Source: Octopus vulgaris (Eukaryota). From it: DNA of 64,000 bases. The first letter of the stretch is position 1; every line of letters starts with the position of its first letter. The position numbers and the translations under genes were made by a program. This document shows positions 3,545 through 63,491 of the stretch, in pieces. The stretch lies in NCBI GenBank assembly GCA_951406725.2, contig OX597814.1:155000001-155064000 (forward strand), given 5' to 3'. Under the pieces are notes generated by a model. The model saw only the letters and a list, made by a program, of their open reading frames with translations, searched no databases and was not told where the DNA came from.

Positions 3545-3974
3545 AATCAATTAGAGATAAAACCACTATTATGCAACTCAAACAGTGATAGACATAAACT
3601 AATACATAAATAACAAATAATATATATATATAATTTTTAAAAAATATATAACTTATAAAAAAGTATAAAATGAATGATATATATGTATATGTATGTATAT
3701 ATCAAACACTCACATATATAACAGAGGTTATATCAGATATACATAATGTTTTAAGTTGAAATATTAATGAAGATATAGCTCTACTTCTTCGCTGTCTTAC
3801 GGAAGAGTCACGACTTTAATATCAGAAAATAGTTGTCAACATGTCAACTTCCTCAGTCATTAATTTGATTTATATTCTTTGAAAAGTCTTTTCCATTCCT
3901 CTAGTCTGAGAGTTACAGAAGCTCAATAATTGTAAATCGTTTCACATAAAAAAGTTTACATTTAAATTGTAAAG

Positions 3975-4150
3975 CCGTAGGGTTATGAAGTTTGGTTCGC
4001 AAATGCATGGTTTCGGGTTCAGTCCCACTACGCGGCAACCTATCCTATATGTAGTATACAGTCCTGAAGTGCAGCACTGTATCCCCAGGTCGGATAATGT
4101 TTTGTAAATTAATATGGAACGCGGAAATTGTGAGAAGCCCATCGTATATG
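3975..4150 (+). mobile_element. Decayed 5' part of abundant SINE family 1
   Basis: GGGTTCAGTCCCACTACG...ACGCGGAAATTGTGAGAAGCCC resembles the intact copy at 17383. Confidence 0.6.
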
Positions 4151-4807
4151 TGTGTGTATGCGCGCGCACGAGTGTGTATGTGTTTGTTTATGTAAGTATG
4201 TATGTATTTATGTATTATACATTATTGTATATATTATTTGTTATAAATTATACTTTAATTCTCACCGTGCTTTAAATAAAGCGTCACAATGAGCATCGCT
4301 TAAATAACATCTCCAAATCTGTACACCACATGTCTAGTTGAATCAGCTAACAGACATAAACACAATAATCTCATAATCATACAGCTTTATTTTCCTGGTA
4401 CCTAGTGTGTAACAATAGTAGCGTAGCTGGGGGTCGAATCCTGGGGGAAGTCCGCCCCGGGCAACGCTTTTATGAAGGTGGTACTTCTGGGTCTATATTG
4501 GGGCACGGTAACCGGAAAGGCTGCCGCGAGTAGCACACACTAGCTAAGCTACTGCAATATATTGCTGAAATTTCAGAGAAATTTCTTAAAGCTATATAAA
4601 TTAGCAGGTTTTTTTGACATACAACATCTGTGACATTTTTCACATTTACTTTTATTTATGCTTTCTGTATACTTTTAGTACATTCTTGAAAGATTATTCA
4701 AAAGAACACCTTAAAATGGAAAATAAAAAAATAATCGGGAAAATTCTTAGAATGTTTTTAATAAATTCAAATATAGAAGGAACATGTACAAGATATGAAA
4801 ATAGTTA

Positions 4808-4875
<68 letters not shown>

Positions 4876-5430
4876 GAGTGAGAGAGCAGTGCATGCCATC
4901 AAAGTGACACTGGGGTAAAATATACGAAGCCCAGTATACCCATCATAACTACCCGTCTGATAAGGGTACACTAGGCACATGCATCACAACCATATGTGCA
5001 CTACATTGTGATCTCATATCAAGATAAACAGCACATGACCTTGCAGGTGGGGCCCAGTTAGAATTTTCTTCTGGTCCAGTAACCCGTCCCGCTCAAAAGG
5101 TCCCTGAATAAGGGTTGTTTAAGGATGTTGAACGAAACACCCATATTTCCAGAGGTGAATTGCTCAAACCCCAAAGAATCCCTTTCAACACATGGCTATG
5201 ATGCTCCCCAACTACTTCTGATCGTGATCAGAGATGCACATATCGTCAGCCACTAAGGGACATGGTCAACTGGTTAAGGTCAAACAACTGACAGGCAAAT
5301 CTGTGGTATCCAGCAGAATATTTGCTGTAACCCATCTTTTATACCAAGACAAAAAACAATGTACATGATAACACTTCCAATCAGTTAAGATCAGAAGCCA
5401 CAAGAGCCACTACCAGGTACTGCATCAGGG

Positions 5431-5431
<1 letters not shown>
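4876..5431. mobile_element. About 555 bp non-coding element inserted precisely in an (ATT)n microsatellite
   Basis: Complex sequence with long (ATT)n runs directly on both sides; no ORF and no TIR. The pattern fits a microsatellite-targeting non-autonomous retroelement. Confidence 0.65.
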
Positions 5432-5502
<71 letters not shown>

Positions 5503-6117
5503 CATCATTATCATTATCATTATCATTATCATTATAACGAAACAACAACTAGAGTGATAGCAAACACTATATGAGAGCAATGAGATACTTTAAAAATGCT
5601 ATGTCACAACACTTCACATGTTCTTAGTCTTGGTTTTCTTTAACAAAATACTTCCAATTTGAGCGGTTGTTGACTCTATACAAGAGACCGGTGGGGGCTC
5701 ACAATTCACATGTGTACGATGATGAAGATGGTGTTATATGCACTAACATACTTAGCTTGCATCTATAAATACAAATTACGTTGCATCTGTAAATAGACCA
5801 TCATGTTGGGTGGCAATGATGCATTCGCCAGCAAGCTGTAACCACTTGTACACCGAATGTGCTGAATCATATTCGAAATCAGCAAGCTGTGCATTAGCCG
5901 ATGCACTAGAATCTTCTTCGTTCGTCATCTTTGCTGTGTCTTACTTACAAAACTCCACTGTAAAACCTTCGCCAAATCTTTTATCCTTAGAACGGCAACC
6001 ATCTGGAACTCATGATCGTGCACATTTTCTCTGCAGGTATCAATCTTTAGAAGTTTTTTTGATCAACGGTTGATGTTCAAGAGCAATGAACTCTACTCGT
6101 TCTCGTCATAAGGAAAA

Positions 6118-6344
6118 TATATTTCTTTATTGCCCACAAGGGGCTAAACATAGAGGGGACAAACAAAGACAGACAAAGGGATTAAGTCAACTACATCGAC
6201 CCCAGTGCGCAACTGGTACTTTATTTATCGGCCCCGAAAGGATGAAAGGCAAAGTCGACCTCGGCGGTGTTTGAACCCAGAACGTAACGACAGACGAAAT
6301 ACTGCTGAGCATTTCGCCCGGCGTGCTAACGCTTCTGCCAGCTC
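6118..6344 (-). mobile_element. tRNA-derived SINE family 2
   Basis: GAGCTGGCAGAAGCGTTAGC (A box-like) ... GGGTTCAAAC (B box) ... GTCGACTTTGCCTTTCATCCTTTCGGGG. Copies at 37069, 48158 and 54776. Confidence 0.8.
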
Positions 6345-10719: not shown

Positions 10720-10910
10720 AATCTAATGCTCGTAGCTTAGTTTTTCCTTGAGGCTGGCCGGATCGGAGCGATCTCGAGATTAATCAGCCGAAATTGCTAG
10801 GATGATCCGGTTCTTGACTGAAGATTGAAGGCTTCGAATGTCCCGTCCGTGTTTTTTGTATCGTCTTCTAAATGTTTTACGTTCTTGTCCCAGTTTGTAT
10901 TTTTCTACAT
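10720..10910 (+). mobile_element. Family A non-autonomous repeat between (TA)n tracts
   Basis: Homologous to 11830-12070, 12620-12812, 46172-46300, 53485-53717 and 62300-62510. Confidence 0.8.
10752..10824 (+). ncRNA. Rearranged hammerhead ribozyme, family A, intact core
   Basis: GGCTG-g-CCGGATC-gg-AGCGATC^TCGAGA-ttaat-CAGCC-GAAA-TTGCT-aggat-GATCCGG-t-TCTTGA-CTGAAGA; all four helices pair. Confidence 0.8.
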
Positions 10911-11410
10911 ATTTATATATATATATATATATGTACACACACATATGATTTTTTCCCTCTCTCGTATTCCTTAATCCCTTTCCCCTCTCCCATATCTCTT
11001 AGTCCTTCTGCCTTCTTCAACTCCTCCCCTCCTCTTCCACGTGATCACTGTCCAGTTTAGGCATTTTCGTATTTTTTCGGCTGACCACCTTTCAAGTTAG
11101 TCGCATCTGTTCTGTTCTGTCTCGTCACCCGGTCAGTTAAGATTTTTCCATTTCTTTTTTCCTTGCTATAGCCTACTACACTGTCTGATAGTCGAAAAAC
11201 TCTGTTTTGTTTTATTTTTATTGCAATTGTATAATTATTTTCCTTTTGTTGTATAGCCGAAAAGCTTTTGTCCATTGTATATAATTATAATTCTATTTCT
11301 TATGTTACGTTCGTCCGATAGTCGAAAGACCCTTTCAGTTTGTTATTTCCTTGTGTTAGTATATGTACATTTGTTTGCCTTGCTTAGGGTTTTAATGTCT
11401 TCAGGCCTTA

Positions 11411-11957: not shown

Positions 11958-12030
11958 TCCTCAGTCAAGCACCAGATTATCATCGCAATTTCGGCTGATT
12001 ATTCTTGAGAGTGCTCCAATCTGGCCAGCC
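11958..12030 (-). ncRNA. Rearranged hammerhead, family A (CTGAGGA; 16.2 mismatch)
   Basis: Minus: GGCTG-g-CCAGATT-gga-GCACTC^TCAAG..CAGCC-GAAA-TTGC..AATCTGG..CTTGA-CTGAGGA. Confidence 0.7.
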
Positions 12031-12593
12031 CAAAGGAAAAATTAATCTAAGAGCATTAGATTCCTTGGAAAAAAGCAAATGTATACAAAAATAGTGACTG
12101 AGAAAGCAGACAATGTTACACAAATATGAATACAAAAAATAATAATAAAAATAATAACAGGGCATAACAACAAGTGTCTTTCGACTAAGGACGAATTGAA
12201 TTGAACTGGTGCGTGTGGAAATGAAGCCTTACGGCAGAGATACAAAATTTTCACAAACACAGGGAAGAATATCGATGTTGCACGGACAATGGTCAGAACA
12301 AGAAAGAAAGAGCAGGCTTGACCGAACACCACGTGGGAAGAGAAGAGAGAGAAGTAGAAGCAGAGGGACAGAAGAATTAAGGAGGGGCGAAAAAAAATGA
12401 CAGGGACACAGTGAAGTGAAAAGTGGAGGGAAAGTAAGAAGCGAAGGCAAAGAAATGTGAGAGAGGGGAAACGGAAGAACGAAAAGTGGAATGAACGAAT
12501 AAGCGTGAAAGGGCGTGATAGACAGAAATAGAGTCGTACAAGATTTTGAAAAATGTGTACTTACATATTAGAGACCAAAGTGTACGTACGCAG

Positions 12594-12629
<36 letters not shown>

Positions 12630-12744
12630 CAAAATGGGATAAGAACGCAAAACTTCCGGACAGCTAGGTGATACAAAAATATACAACAAAACATTCAGAT
12701 AGACGATACAAAGAAAACAAGGACGGGTCATTCGAAGTTTTCTT

Positions 12745-12812
12745 TCGTCAGTCAAGCACCAGGTTATCCTCGCAATTTCGGCTGATTATTCTTGAGATTG
12801 CTCCAATTTGGC
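12745..12812 (-). ncRNA. Rearranged hammerhead, family A, 5'-truncated (CTGACGA)
   Basis: GCAATC^TCAAG..CAGCC-GAAA-TTGC..CTTGA-CTGACGA; the GGCTG strand is replaced by another repeat at about 12813. Confidence 0.6.
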
Positions 12813-13099
12813 AACGCCACGCATCCATTTCCAACTGAGTTTATCTTAACCTTTTTGATGCAACTCTACTCTATACTGTTTTCTCTCTCATCCTTTTATA
12901 ATTCCCCTTCTTCCCTTCACTGTTTTCTATCTCTCTCTTTCTCCTTTCTCTTTTACTCTTTCTCCTTGCTCACACGTAACCATTATCCATCTTTTTTTTC
13001 CTCAAGTGACCATCTTTCTTTTCCTGCACGACGTTCTAAAAAATGGACGTCTTCTATCTCTCTCTTCAAACGTTATTGTTTTGAAAGAGTATTTCTCCC

Positions 13100-13884: not shown

Positions 13885-14615
13885 AATCATATATGGGTAC
13901 AGGACGTCATAGAACGTAAACAGCATGAAATAGGAAAACAACAGGGAAACACGAAATACGAAAACAAGGAATACAAACAGTTTTTTTGCGAACAACGAAA
14001 GAATGAAATGATAAACAAGGCAAGCTACATAACGAACGACCCTTCATCATTTGTCGACTGTTTTTCTACTCCGTATTTTGAGCAATTCCTGATAAGATAC
14101 GTCTTCGACAAAACAGTTGTTCCTGCAAAGCAAATTAAATAAAATTTGGGATTTTGCGTAGGGTCACAGTTGGTGACAATAATAGGACAGTGAAACAAAT
14201 AGAAAGGGCTGCTAAGCCTTAAGGAGGTGGCGAACGCTGGGGGAACAAGCTTTGACAGGAGAGAGACAAGAATGCGTCTGATCTCTGCCGCTGATTAGCA
14301 GGAAAGAAAGAAACTCAAGTTAAGAAAAGTAAGATGGCTGATGGTCACGTGCGAGCAACGAGAAAGCAAAGGAGGAAGAGTGAGGGAGAGAGAGGGATAG
14401 ACAGAGAACGGCGAAGGGGAGACGAAAAAAATTAGAGAAAGGATGAGAAAAACAAAAGAGGGAGAAAGAGAGATAAAAACAATTAGAGAAAGCAAGAGAG
14501 AGGAAACGAAAGGGGTAAGAGAAAGAGACATAGGAATAGAGATGGTAATAGAATAAGAGTCGTATCGAAATTATTAAGATAAAACTTACTTGGAAATGGA
14601 TGCGTGGCGTTCAAT
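13885..14615 (-). mobile_element. Family B non-autonomous repeat (homolog 43295-44003)
   Basis: Shared ATATGGGTACAGGACGTCA, GACCCTTCATCA, GATGGTCACGT..GAGCAACGAGA and TTACTTGGAAAT.GATGC.TGGCGTTCAATCA. Confidence 0.8.
14044..14122 (-). ncRNA. Rearranged hammerhead motif, family B, inactivated core
   Basis: GAACA-a-CTGTTTT..CGTATC^TTATC..TGCTC-AAAA-TACG..AAAACAG..GACAA-ATGATGA (C3>A, G12>A). Confidence 0.6.
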
Positions 14616-14674
14616 CATACAATAATAATAATAATAATAATAATAATATATATATATATTATTTTTCATTCTTG

Positions 14675-17180: not shown

Positions 17181-17252
17181 AGGTTCTACCGAGACTTAAA
17201 CTCGGATCTCTGGATTCAGAGTCCAGAGTGCTAACCATTACACCATAGAACC
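17181..17252 (-). pseudogene. tRNA-Gln(CTG) copy with T-loop mutation (TTT for TTC)
   Basis: GGTTCTATGGTGTAATGGTTAGCACTCTGGACTCTGAATCCAGAGATCCGAGTTTAAGTCTCGGTAGAACCT; B-box C56 lost. Confidence 0.8.
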
Positions 17253-18622: not shown

Positions 18623-18693
18623 AGGTTCTACCGAGACTTGAACTCGGATCTCTGGATTCAGAGTCCAGAGTGCTAACCATTACACCATTAACC
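18623..18693 (-). pseudogene. tRNA-Gln(CTG) copy with damaged acceptor stem
   Basis: 5' end GGTTAATGG instead of GGTTCTATGG (71 nt); the rest is intact. Confidence 0.8.
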
Positions 18694-19372: not shown

Positions 19373-19444
19373 AGGTTCTACCGAGACTTGAACTCGGATC
19401 GCTGGATTCAGAGTCCAGAGTGCTAACCATTACACCATAGAACC
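19373..19444 (-). tRNA. tRNA-Gln (anticodon CTG), intact
   Basis: GGTTCTA/TAGAACC acceptor stem, CTGGA-CT-CTG-AA-TCCAG anticodon arm, CCGAG-TTCAAGT-CTCGG T arm; TTTTT terminator about 23 nt downstream; matches metazoan tRNA-Gln. Confidence 0.93.
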
Positions 19445-21079: not shown

Positions 21080-21081
<2 letters not shown>

Positions 21082-21973
21082 GGACAACTTCCAGAGATCC
21101 CTGGCCTGGCGGTGCTACCGAGAAGCGCTACCCGTTCGGGATAAGCTCTATAGGCATGGCTCGAGAAACACGCGGCCGACCTGCCCGAGATGCGGGCAGA
21201 GCGACGAAACCGCTCTGCACGCAATCGTGCAGTGTCCAGCAATTTCCCACCTGTGGGCTTATGTCGAACGACTGCTGTCACGTGTGGAACGTGTCGGTTT
21301 ATCAGCCGAGTCTATCGTTAATATCGTCACGCCTCCTTCCTTCAAACGGGAAGGAAGAGCTATTTTTATCATACTTGTGGCTATGGCGAAAGAATGTATC
21401 TGGTGGACGCGTCTGAAAGGATTAGAGACAAACACTTTCCTCTCTGGTCAATCTCTCATCAACTTCTTCAAGTATCACTTGAAGAAAAAAGTGAGAGTAG
21501 AGAGGCAAGTTTTGTCTAGTGAATGTTTTAAAAAAAGATGGGTGAATATAGCAAGGATGGCACGTATGAATGACGAAGCAACCTTGACTATGATTCTATG
21601 AACCGTAAAAATTAAGACAGAGAGTTGCTTATTTGCAAAAAAAAAAAGAAAAAAAAGAAATATAACATGTGACTTCATTGACCGAGGTTACCGTGGTCTT
21701 TTCCGTAGGCTTTTCTTTCCACGGGTAAACCTCACCTGTCCTCCCCTTTACACTTCATATTGACATTTCTGTGATAACGATCCCTATTGATCAATTTTTT
21801 TCCTCTCCCCCTTTTTTTTTAACCCCCCCTTTTTTTGTCCTCTTTCTCTCCTTTTACGATCCCTTTTGATCGACTCCCCCCCCTTTTTTTTTTTTTTTTT
21901 ACCTTCAAAAGAAAAGCTCTACCTTGTAATTTGTTCTATCTGTGTGCAGCCCTGTGTGGCTAATAAAGAAACA
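21080..21973 (+). mobile_element. 5'-truncated L1/Tx1-like LINE: ORF2 C-terminus (zf-RVT) + 3' UTR, inserted in (TATC)n
   Basis: Open frame to TGA at 21601 with LAWR..ALP..CPRC...ETALH...C...W (CCHC zf-RVT); AATAAA at 21962 directly before (TATC)n. Confidence 0.85.
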
Positions 21974-22002
21974 TATCTATCTGTCTGTCTGTCTGTCTAT
22001 CT

Positions 22003-22438
22003 GTAGCAAGAATGGCACGTATGAATGACGAAGCCACCTTGAGCATAATCCTATGAACCCAGAAATTGAAAACAGAGATTTGCTTCTTTGCAAAAAAAAA
22101 AAAAAAAAAAAAAGAAATATAAAATGTGAATTCATTGACCGAGGTTACCGTGGTCTTTTCCGTAGGCTTTTCTTTCCACGGGTAAACCTCACCTGTCCTC
22201 CCCTTTACACTTCATATTGACATTTCTGTGATAACGATCCCTATTGATCAATTTTTCTTTCCTCTCCTCCCTTTTTTTAACCCCCCCTTTTTTGTCCTCT
22301 TTCTCTCCTTTTACGATCCCTTTTGATCGAAACTCCCCCCCTTTCCTTTTTTTCTTTTTTTTTAAACCTTCAAAAGAAAAGCTCTACCTTGTAATTTGTT
22401 CTATCTGTGTGCAGCCCTGTGTGGCTAATAAAGAAACA
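22003..22438 (+). mobile_element. Second, shorter 5'-truncated copy of the same Tx1-like LINE
   Basis: Near-identical ORF end and 3' UTR, with the same AATAAAGAAACA end followed by (TATC)n. Confidence 0.85.
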
Positions 22439-22790
<352 letters not shown>

Positions 22791-43226: not shown

Positions 43227-43414
43227 TATATACATGCATATATATATATATATATATATATACATACATATATATATATGTGTGTAAATATATATATGCA
43301 TATATGGGTACAGGACGTCACAAAACGTAACATGAAATACGAAAACAAAGTTGTGTACGCAAACAACGGGAGAAACAAATAGAAAACAAGACAAGTAACA
43401 TAAAGAATGACCCT

Positions 43415-43491
43415 TCATCAGTTGTCAGCTGCCCATGTACTCTTCGTTTCAAGCATTGAACGACAATATGAAACTTCGAAGACAGTTGCTC
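43415..43491 (-). ncRNA. Rearranged hammerhead motif, family B, core boxes intact
   Basis: GAGCA-a-CTGTC..TTCATA^TTGTC..TGCTT-GAAA-CGAA..GGCAG-ct-GACAA-CTGATGA; one CpG-type mismatch at 16.2. Confidence 0.7.
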
Positions 43492-43852
43492 CCGTGAATC
43501 AAAATTAAATTTGGGATTTGCGGAGGATTTGCGGAGACATACAAGGAAACCGAACGAAAACAATCATGGAAGGTCGTTAGACCAGACGAGGTAATGTAGC
43601 GAACGCTGGAGAAATATTGTCTTTGACAAGAGAAAAGATAGAAGAGGTGATAAATAAGATACGTGCAGTCACTACAACACTGAAGAAACGAAAGAGGGAC
43701 GATGGTCACGTTGAGCAACGAGAGAGAGATAGAGTAAAAGAAAAAGAGCAAGAGAGAGAGACAGTAAAGGAGAAAGAGAGACAGACAGAGAGATAGAAAA
43801 CGGCGAAGGGGAGAAAATAATAATTAGAGAAAGGATGAGAGAAAAAACGATT

Positions 43853-43931
<79 letters not shown>

Positions 43932-44024
43932 CAGTAAAGAGTTGAGTTGCATCAAAAATATTAAGATAAACTTACTTGGAAATAGATGCATGGCGTTCAA
44001 TCAAAAAAATAATATATATATATA

Positions 44025-46023: not shown

Positions 46024-46173
46024 CATACATACATACATACATACATACATACATACATTCAGTCATTCATTCATTCATTCATTCATACACACGTACATAC
46101 GTATATACATATATGCACAATTTTTCTGTATATACACATATAATTGCATATATACAGGCATATAATAAATCCA

Positions 46174-46214
46174 TCAGCCGAAATTGCGAGGATGATCCGG
46201 TTCTTGACTAAAGA
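46174..46214 (+). ncRNA. 3' half of a family A rearranged hammerhead (G5 mutated)
   Basis: CAGCC-GAAA-TTGC..GATCCGG-t-TCTTGA-CTAAAGA. Confidence 0.5.
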
Positions 46215-46297
46215 TTGAAGGCTTCGAATGTCCCATCCGTGTTTTTTGTGTCATCATCAAAATGTTTTGCGTTCTTGTCCCTGTTTGTATTTTTATA

Positions 46298-46372
<75 letters not shown>

Positions 46373-53609: not shown

Positions 53610-53682
53610 TCTTCAGTCAAGAACCGGATCATCCTCGCAATTTCGGGTGACTAATCTTGAGATTGCTCCAATCTGGCCAGCC
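53610..53682 (-). ncRNA. Rearranged hammerhead, family A (CTGAAGA; single mismatches in stem II and helix X)
   Basis: GGCTG-g-CCAGATT-gga-GCAATC^TCAAGA..CACCC-GAAA-TTGC..GATCCGG-t-TCTTGA-CTGAAGA. Confidence 0.7.
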
Positions 53683-62302: not shown

Positions 62303-63491
62303 TAAACGTTAAAAAAACACAAACTGGGACAAGAACGTGAAACATTTTGAAGACGGCAAAAAAACACACAGACGGGACTTTCGAAGCTCTCAGTCATCAG
62401 TCAAGAACCAGATCATCTTCGCAATTTCGGCTGATTAATCTTGAGATTGCTCCAATCTGGGCAGCCAACCAAGGGAAATCTAAGCCAATCGCATTAGATT
62501 CCTTGGAAGAAAACCTCGAAAGTATACAACACGGTGACGGAAAAACGGACGATGTTACTCGAAAAAAAAAAAATTCAAAAATACGTAAAAACAATAAAGA
62601 AAGCACGGATAAAAATACAAAATAACTTAAAAACAATCATAACAAAACCAGGACGTCAGGACAAGCGTCTTTCGACAGGACGAGTTGAGTATAGGGCTGG
62701 CTGTGCACACGGATTTTTTGAAATTCCCCACAATCTGTGCCCTGGCACATTCCCAAGAAAGTGAACGCTTCTTGTCTGCAAGAAATTTGGTTAAAACAAT
62801 GTTCTTGCTGAAGCTATCTGCCTGTGTTTTCCATCGGTCTCCCGTCTCTTATATCTGTGATTGGAAAAAACTGCGCGTTCGAATATAACAAATGATGTGT
62901 ATTGTTTGAAGAATGAGAACTGTAATGTTCAGTTTTAATTCTTCATCTCTTTTATTGTTACGAATTTATATTTACAAGGGACACTACCATTTTAGGGAAA
63001 GAAAGACAAGTTACATTGACAAGTACTGTTTATGAAGGAAAAAAATTTACGTTCATTGAGAAGGTAGAAAAATGTTTGTGGAAGTAGGAAATGTTTTAGT
63101 TTTAGGGTAACATTTCTTTTTACAATCTAACAAGTTGACAGAGACGGGACGATGATTACTGCCATGATCGAAAATTTGGCGGTTGTCATGCCTCGTTGCT
63201 CATATCCACAGATTCGATCTCTTTTATTGAGTTCAGAACTAATCTTCCTGGATAAATCTATGGTGAAATTATGGCATGTCTCATAATTTTATTGGCCATG
63301 TTATTGTAAATGTCATCATTCATTTTGAAAGATCCTGTTGGTTAAAGCATACTTTATTTGAAAAGAAAACATTCGGAGTTAAAACTGAGGCAGAGATCTG
63401 CTACATTGCTGAAATTGATAGCTGATGCGGGTAGGTTCGATTACTGTCTGGTATCATTTGCGATAGATGTTTGCCAAGAGAGGGGTGAGCA
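61722..63491 (-). repeat. Two diverged direct copies (61722-61987 and about 63222-63491) of a probable decayed PLE RT segment
   Basis: Shared GAAAACATTCGGAGTTAAAACTGAGG..GATCTGCTACATT. Minus translation gives ..ADLYL..FK.xDD(I/V)..IYP..L, which resembles the PLE RT YIDD region. Confidence 0.45.
62394..62466 (-). ncRNA. Rearranged hammerhead ribozyme, family A, fully intact
   Basis: GGCTG-c-CCAGATT-gga-GCAATC^TCAAGA-ttaat-CAGCC-GAAA-TTGC-gaagat-GATCTGG-t-TCTTGA-CTGATGA. Confidence 0.82.

Follow-up and report, generated by a model that had tools for sequence, protein, structure and literature searches.

A 64,000-nucleotide stretch of the Octopus vulgaris genome (GCA_951406725.2, contig OX597814.1, positions 155,000,001 to 155,064,000; hereafter the window) carries at 43415 a motif in which the parts of a hammerhead ribozyme stand in a rearranged order. 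This locus raises the question of which kind of hammerhead the motif represents, whether it could cut, and what element carries it. With good confidence, the analysis points to a decayed copy of a predicted hammerhead whose core is split at the A9/G10.1 joint. The motif sits close to the 3' end of a repeat that has no coding frame and is likely moved by a Naiad-type Penelope-like element (PLE). The repeat is termed family B, and a second set of motifs in the window is termed family A (Table 1).

Table 1. Positions of family B and family A features in the window, counted from its first letter.
Feature	Position	Strand	Basis
Family B motif, worn copy	43415-43491	minus	Sequence, BLAST
Family B host repeat, ~700 nt, without coding frame	43305..44003	minus	Alignment with 14044 element, BLAST
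Stem II 5' strand (10.1 onward), extreme 5' end of motif	43486..43491	minus	Blind scan, duplex energy, majority letters
Helix X 5' strand (predicted counterpart of SGC stem I/II interaction helix 'I')	43480..43485	minus	Pairing in both copies
Stem III 5' strand, ending in U16.1	43468..43472	minus	Two-sided changes, majority letters
H17 (A at 43467); predicted cleavage between 43467 and 43466	43466..43467	minus	Sequence; site by hammerhead-core analogy
Stem I 5' strand	43461..43466	minus	6/6 paired in 43415 copy
Block G	43443..43456	minus	Sequence; majority letters at 43443, 43446, 43451
Block G, stem II 3' strand	43451-43456	minus	
Block G, G12 A13 A14	43448-43450	minus	
Block G, stem III 3' strand	43443-43447	minus	
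Helix X 3' strand	43429..43434	minus	Pairing with 43480-43485
Stem I 3' strand	43422-43427	minus	Pairing with 43461-43466
CUGAUGA core, closing the motif	43415-43421	minus	Sequence
Second family B motif, C3 and G12 of the core lost	14044..14122	minus	Sequence, alignment
Second family B element	13894..14625	minus	BLAST, alignment
Family A copy, four helices and core intact	10752..10824	plus	Descriptor, pairing
Family A copy, same layout, intact core	62394..62466	minus	Descriptor, pairing
Family A copy, stem II and helix X each with a single mismatch	53610..53682	minus	Descriptor, pairing
Family A copy, 787 nt downstream of 12745..12812 copy, same orientation	11958..12030	minus	
Family A copy, 5' end cut, without upstream stem II strand	12745..12812	minus	

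Read 5' to 3', the strands of the motif follow one another as stem II, helix X, stem III, cut site, stem I, stem II, GAAA, stem III, helix X, stem I and CUGAUGA. As read from the sequence, this order is that of an SGC-type ring with its opening at the A9/G10.1 joint, helix X being the putative 'I' helix. The core positions C3 U4 G5 A6 N7 G8 A9, G12 A13 A14, A15.1-U16.1 and H17 are all present in the 43415 copy, where stems I and III directly adjoin the core and stems I and II are joined by a 4-nt linker (43457-43460). Stem III and helix X were found as given in the preliminary description, both on the minus strand. Helix X is paired at 6/6 positions in both copies, and stem III is paired at 5/5 positions in the 14044 copy and carries one A.C mismatch beside A15.1-U16.1 in the 43415 copy. 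In the latter, stem II closes on G12 with a G.U at 10.1-11.1. With an A.C beside the core and this G.U, the 43415 copy is probably weak or inactive, and it is unlikely that it cuts well. The available text of Perreault 2011, in which hits mispaired beside the core were discarded, bears on this likely weakness. The 14044 copy, which lacks both C3 and G12 as first reported (C3 to A, G12 to A) and carries one mismatch in its upstream stem II strand, is predicted to be dead.

Alignment of the elements at 43305-44003 and 13894-14625 demonstrated that they are one repeat, with 79% mean column identity. No Pfam hit was found in the repeat at 43305..44003, in which the motif sits ~110 nt from the 3' end. 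Both family B copies are bordered on either side by (TA)n-type repeats. The window as a whole is AT-rich, with many simple repeats and three tRNA genes; these genes are similar, carry a CUG anticodon (Gln) and lie on the minus strand within 2.3 kb (17181-17252, 18623-18693 and 19373-19444). At 21080-21601, beside (TATC)n arrays, lies a 3' fragment from a non-LTR retroelement, in which Pfam finds a zf-RVT domain (E 6e-9); a tandem duplication of 457 nt accompanies it at 21549-22459. Among the 150 of 223 Rfam matches listed for the window, none was to a hammerhead family and none lay at the motif, all being tRNA or simple-repeat noise.

Sequencing runs from six organisms contained matches to the stretch 43310-43720. 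At 80% likeness, three DNA runs, each from a different organism, had 5,790, 6,243 and 3,771 contigs that could be placed on 43310-43850. Family B is abundant as judged by this contig depth, which is not a copy number. A further run, guessed to be RNA, placed 108 contigs on family B, a count that says nothing about expression, and none of the 15 joints listed out of 108 was a circle-type joint at the predicted cut site. The family B pattern found no match when scanned against metagenome contigs.

Majority letters were taken from the 3,771-6,243 contigs of each DNA run, position by position and without linkage. Ten majority changes were listed in 43405-43491, of which 7 fall in helices, and all 7 yield Watson-Crick pairs; together they mend 6/6 listed helix defects, wobbles or swaps of the 43415 copy. 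The stem III mismatch is repaired to give 5/5 Watson-Crick pairs, one U-A pair becomes C-G through changes on both sides, and four wobbles in stem II, helix X and stem I become standard pairs, with both G.U pairs of helix X turning into U-A. In stem II, the upstream strand gives 5 Watson-Crick pairs including G10.1-C11.1, and a sixth pair is suggested by loose-end contig rows. A second variant of the stem III 3' strand also occurs among the placed contigs, and the copies that have it are predicted to carry the matching change at 43470. No majority change in the core was found among the rows listed. The 43415 copy has thus decayed from a common family form that keeps all four helices and, among the rows listed, the core. 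Decay after insertion, as originally proposed, agrees with this repair of the helices and with the loss of C3 and G12 at 14044. A family consensus had been expected to restore the helices, GAAA, CTGATGA and a GUA or AUC triplet at the cut site. The helices are restored, and GAAA and CTGATGA are unchanged among the rows listed. AUC is present at 14044, but the 43415 copy has AUA, and GUA is unsupported because the majority stem III ends in A-U. Under majority letters (at 43472 and 43473), the bases that connect helix X to stem III fall in a perfect 12-base palindrome (43470-43481), a rival to helix X formation or a possible site of pairing between two RNAs.

Comparison of the 43415 and 14044 copies revealed that 4 of 23 pairs were changed on both sides (3 in stem III and 1 in helix X). 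Across both copies 89% of cells pair, versus 28-46% when the partners are slid. The covariation claimed for these copies was recovered, with modest statistics: four two-sided changes were reached in 80 of 500 shuffles, a simple independent-change model gave P ~0.03, and differing columns made up 17/46 of the paired versus 14/51 of the unpaired, so that paired columns are not less variable. The two-copy covariation in family B is suggestive only. No two-sided change in stem II was found within the family A copies or within the family B copies compared.

The original reading was right on the layout and incomplete in two respects, the partner of stem II and the class of the host element. The position of the stem II partner is what separates family B from the published SGC type. 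In a blind scan for the partner of the strand before GAAA, the best match lay upstream of helix X and not after CUGAUGA; the upstream place ranked first in 7/7 copies and coincided with the layout position in 5 of the 6 copies that retain the strand. Consistent with this placement, the duplex energy of the 43415 copy was -5.0 kcal/mol with the upstream strand versus -2.1 kcal/mol with the downstream strand, and the upstream strand was the stronger in 5 of 6 copies, namely the 43415 copy and 4/4 intact family A copies. In the 14044 copy, where the upstream strand is mutated, the downstream strand reached -6.6 versus 0.0 kcal/mol upstream. A stem II strand within 1-2 nt of CUGANGA was found as a weak 4-pair register in family B and not at all in family A. 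The 3' strand of helix X, 43429-43434, has its covarying partner 5' of stem III and not 3' of the core, where inspection by eye gave nothing but matches out of register within the T-rich tail. Plain minimum-energy folding, which is unable to represent the knot, was not used as support. The split layout is probably the working fold of family B.

The same rearranged layout is common to family A, as the preliminary description had stated, both by an exact-core descriptor and by pairing. Under the split layout, 93.6% of 110 family A cells pair, versus 20-47% when slid; the two two-sided changes, both in helix X, were reached by 122/500 shuffles. The absence of sequence likeness between the families also held at the level of the motif, with 866 and 497 of 1000 shuffles scoring as high. 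No match to the family A pattern was found in viral, metagenome or prokaryote contigs. Joined directly to the copy at 12745-12812 is an inverted piece (12813-13027) that is 72-83% like the 5' body of family B. The arrangement at 11958-13027 resembles the inverted-plus-tandem pattern drawn for PLEs. A further stretch, 46173-46336, is a family A copy with its 5' end cut inside the motif and G5 lost. In the bodies beside family A, GAAA between GTC and GAC recurs (11140-11330, 12170-12195 and 62665-62685).

According to the available text of Craig 2021 (PMC8557442), Naiads favour (TA)n and are without canonical hammerhead motifs, and 8 Naiads have an 'HHR_half_core' whose second core half lies 35-50 nt away on either side. 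The Naiad consensi in the accessible parts of the supplement (PMC8557442) were searched for the four core heptamers and parsed by eye, none being computed. The word search misses heptamers broken by line ends; the counts treat four unparsed CTGACGA places (parts 17-19, likely ostracod elements) as misses and leave out 4 CTGATGA and 14 CTGAAGA places outside the Naiad file. By this reading, the split order is present in 11 of 54 consensi, 10 of them with G10.1-C11.1, and a downstream stem II of at least 3 pairs is present in 0/11. Adjacent headers identify six as Bfor, Amil, Aacu, Anas, Obim and Ovul, and file position identifies the others as one Clytia, one Morbakka, Plae or Dcar, one crustacean and Esco. 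Flaws were seen in Bfor (stem I of 2 pairs), Aacu (2 mismatches) and Esco (stem II 4/5). The helix sequences of the split Naiads are unrelated between phyla. The nematode stretch of the file holds six consensi of type CSG with an interaction helix, one of which has a U inserted after A9. From the arachnid stretch come two that look SGC-like by eye with a weak stem II, and the remaining 35 of the 54 had no motif parsable by eye. At the 5' ends of Naiad_Obim, Naiad_Ovul and Naiad_Omin, in the supplement text available, CUGAAGA is followed directly by ten letters equal to the upstream stem II strand and start of helix X of family B. The site has a complementary strand upstream and no GAAA, and overlaps the start of the translated frame; it is possibly a relic of an unsplit form, or chance.

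The link between family B and Naiads is inferred because the window holds no Naiad reading frame; it rests on the layout, on flanking (TA)n repeats and on the combination of tandem and inverted pieces at 11958-13027. Among the 150 of 155 window frames covered by Pfam, none had a hit for a Naiad or other PLE frame (N-terminal GIY-YIG plus RT), as expected of a non-autonomous element. The Naiad_Ovul motif had no match in the window, and four window motifs were not in the Craig 2021 consensi. We lean, with some reserve, towards a Naiad-type element as the mover of family B.

The leading alternative is that family B is an ordinary type SGC with an extra A after A9, in which the G-rich run 43410-43413 forms stem II. 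Four downstream pairs are indeed possible under majority letters (2 G-C and 2 wobbles), the 14044 copy attains its -6.6 kcal/mol in this register, and the G-rich run is common to both family B copies. An extra base at 9/10.1 is also common in PLE hammerheads; according to the available text of Cervera 2014 (PMC4209133), those of metazoans carry one between 9 and 10.1 and often act as dimers. However, the upstream strand offers 5 Watson-Crick pairs and abuts helix X as stem II abuts 'I' in types SGC and CSG, and the G-rich run can instead fold back on the core. The alternative was demoted because neither family A nor the 11 split Naiads in the supplement text available have a downstream strand within 2 nt of A9, and we regard it as improbable. 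The fold-back involves the bases right after the core in both families (43404-43421 and 10818-10836), as seen in folding energies for both family B copies and by eye for family A. Such a hairpin could be an off-switch and may explain the retention of the G-rich run in family B.

Under the split layout, intact copies likely cut their own RNA, by analogy with known hammerheads. In hammerhead chemistry, G12 is the general base and G8 the general acid. Like the 'I' helix of type SGC, helix X would clamp stems I and II together at their far ends; A9 would stack on G10.1-C11.1 without a backbone link, and intact copies would cut after H17, which here is 43467. Tolerance of the break between A9 and G10.1 is suggested by the extra base at 9/10.1 in metazoan PLE hammerheads. 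De la Pena and Flores reportedly described in 2001 an extra A in a viroid hammerhead, which is likewise invoked for break tolerance. With each terminal repeat carrying a motif, read-through or tandem transcripts would be reduced by cutting to single units. The 5' product would remain bound through ~17 pairs (stem II, helix X and stem III), an arrangement that would promote re-joining or the formation of circles. Of the whole mechanism, this biological role is the part of which we are least sure.

A second alternative is that the fold is conserved and no longer catalytic, a hammerhead-derived knot that is protein-bound or protects RNA ends. A backbone break beside A9 may not allow cutting, and many Naiads lacked a readable motif in the searches made of the available consensi. 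The available text of Frangieh 2024 adds that a Poseidon PLE hammerhead needed protein and that its cleavage was not required for insertion in vitro. Against this, families whose helix sequences are unrelated retain CUGANGA, GAAA, U16.1 and a base other than G at H17, and a binding role alone would not need such a core; we hold this reading to be quite improbable. Less probable still is an active unit made of a dimer or two tandem repeats with swapped strands, of which a single copy would be half. The dimers often formed by metazoan PLE hammerheads, the palindrome at 43470-43481 under majority letters and the tandem pair of family A copies fit such a unit, yet all four helices close inside one copy, and the palindrome is absent from the 14044 copy and from family A.

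Chance was gauged with a descriptor of the four helices and the exact core, run on the window and on 60 shuffled windows. Six sites were found in the window, comprising 5 family A copies and the 43415 copy, with scores of 17-22 and a score of 18 for the 43415 copy. The 60 shuffled windows gave 11 sites in total, 7 scoring at least 16, 4 at least 18 and none at least 20, and no shuffled site scored as high as the four best family A copies. On its own, the 43415 copy is borderline versus chance. When 1-2 core mismatches were allowed (the 14044 copy needs 2), the descriptor was unspecific, with dozens of hits. Chance pairing in an old repeat, for which the 4 shuffled sites reaching the score of the 43415 copy would speak, is very unlikely given that 6/6 exact-core hits fall in two repeat families, that majority letters mend 7/7 helix positions, and that the order is common to unrelated sequences of several phyla.

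Collectively, these data make it somewhat probable that the split layout is a seventh natural topology, active without the A9-G10.1 backbone link. It would serve as the normal ribozyme in many Naiads and in the short elements derived from them, over a range of hosts that begins with ctenophores and corals and extends to crustaceans and cephalopods, in a clade that has the reversed ring in three openings (split, CSG and SGC). If so, the three Naiad openings point to circular or tandem RNA intermediates that re-open the ring, and animal genomes would hold thousands of unrecognised ribozymes. The available text of Eckert 2023 (PMC10085705) counts six possible orders and assumes that CUGANGA is inseparable from its neighbouring stems, an assumption that a split motif in an animal genome breaks. 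The layout also offers an answer to the seeming lack of hammerheads in Naiads, as compared with other endonuclease-bearing PLEs; as far as the accessible sources go, Naiads would have seemed hammerhead-free because searches used the standard order. Should the split form prove active, a large set of genomic ribozymes escapes standard descriptors, and ribozyme design would gain a new handle in the open joint at A9/G10.1. In the literature searched, which included few subscription papers and some only in part, neither the split order, animal SGC or CSG forms nor a structure for the Naiad half-core was found, and the available text of a 2026 retrozyme preprint (bioRxiv 10.64898/2026.07.22.740005) had no passage on these forms.

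Compared with known systems, the chemistry of family B is that of the known hammerhead class. Types I, II and III (CGS, GSC and SCG, without core-stem pseudoknots) do not describe it; its blocks run S, G, C. The Naiads of Craig 2021 share with the window their (TA)n targets, a motif near the 3' end and an inverted 5' piece beside a terminal repeat (12813-13027 in the window). They differ in that the available text gives no half-core structure and in that families A and B are short and non-coding. The type I or minimal hammerheads in PLEs and in non-LTR retrozymes (PMC4209133; bioRxiv 10.64898/2026.07.22.740005, as far as available) are alike in having a hammerhead in a terminal repeat, either of the PLE or of a non-autonomous element derived from it, with an interruption at 9/10.1. 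Those hammerheads, however, run C-G-S and function as dimers, with stem III short or missing, whereas family B is reversed, knotted and has a full stem III.

The reversed orders come closest; in the available text of Eckert 2023 (PMC10085705) they are almost only from environmental data. Type CSG, which is the same ring of strands opened elsewhere and has an interaction helix, differs in placing the core first with stem II directly after it, and is known there from 2 metagenome sequences. Type SGC has a short linker from stem I to stem II and an 'I' helix, and mutations show that all four helices are needed (PMC10085705, available text). With this type (the HRIMA-1 motif and variants) family B shares block order, short linker, a fourth helix that joins stems I and II at their far ends, a full core and a similar size. 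Family B was not classed as type SGC because its block C is not clearly that of the type: in SGC, as described there, CUGANGA precedes stem II and the 'I' strand, whereas in family B both stand at the 5' end, breaking block C. Finally, type SGC as described there comes from metatranscriptomes rather than from the genomes of known organisms, whereas family B is an animal genomic repeat.
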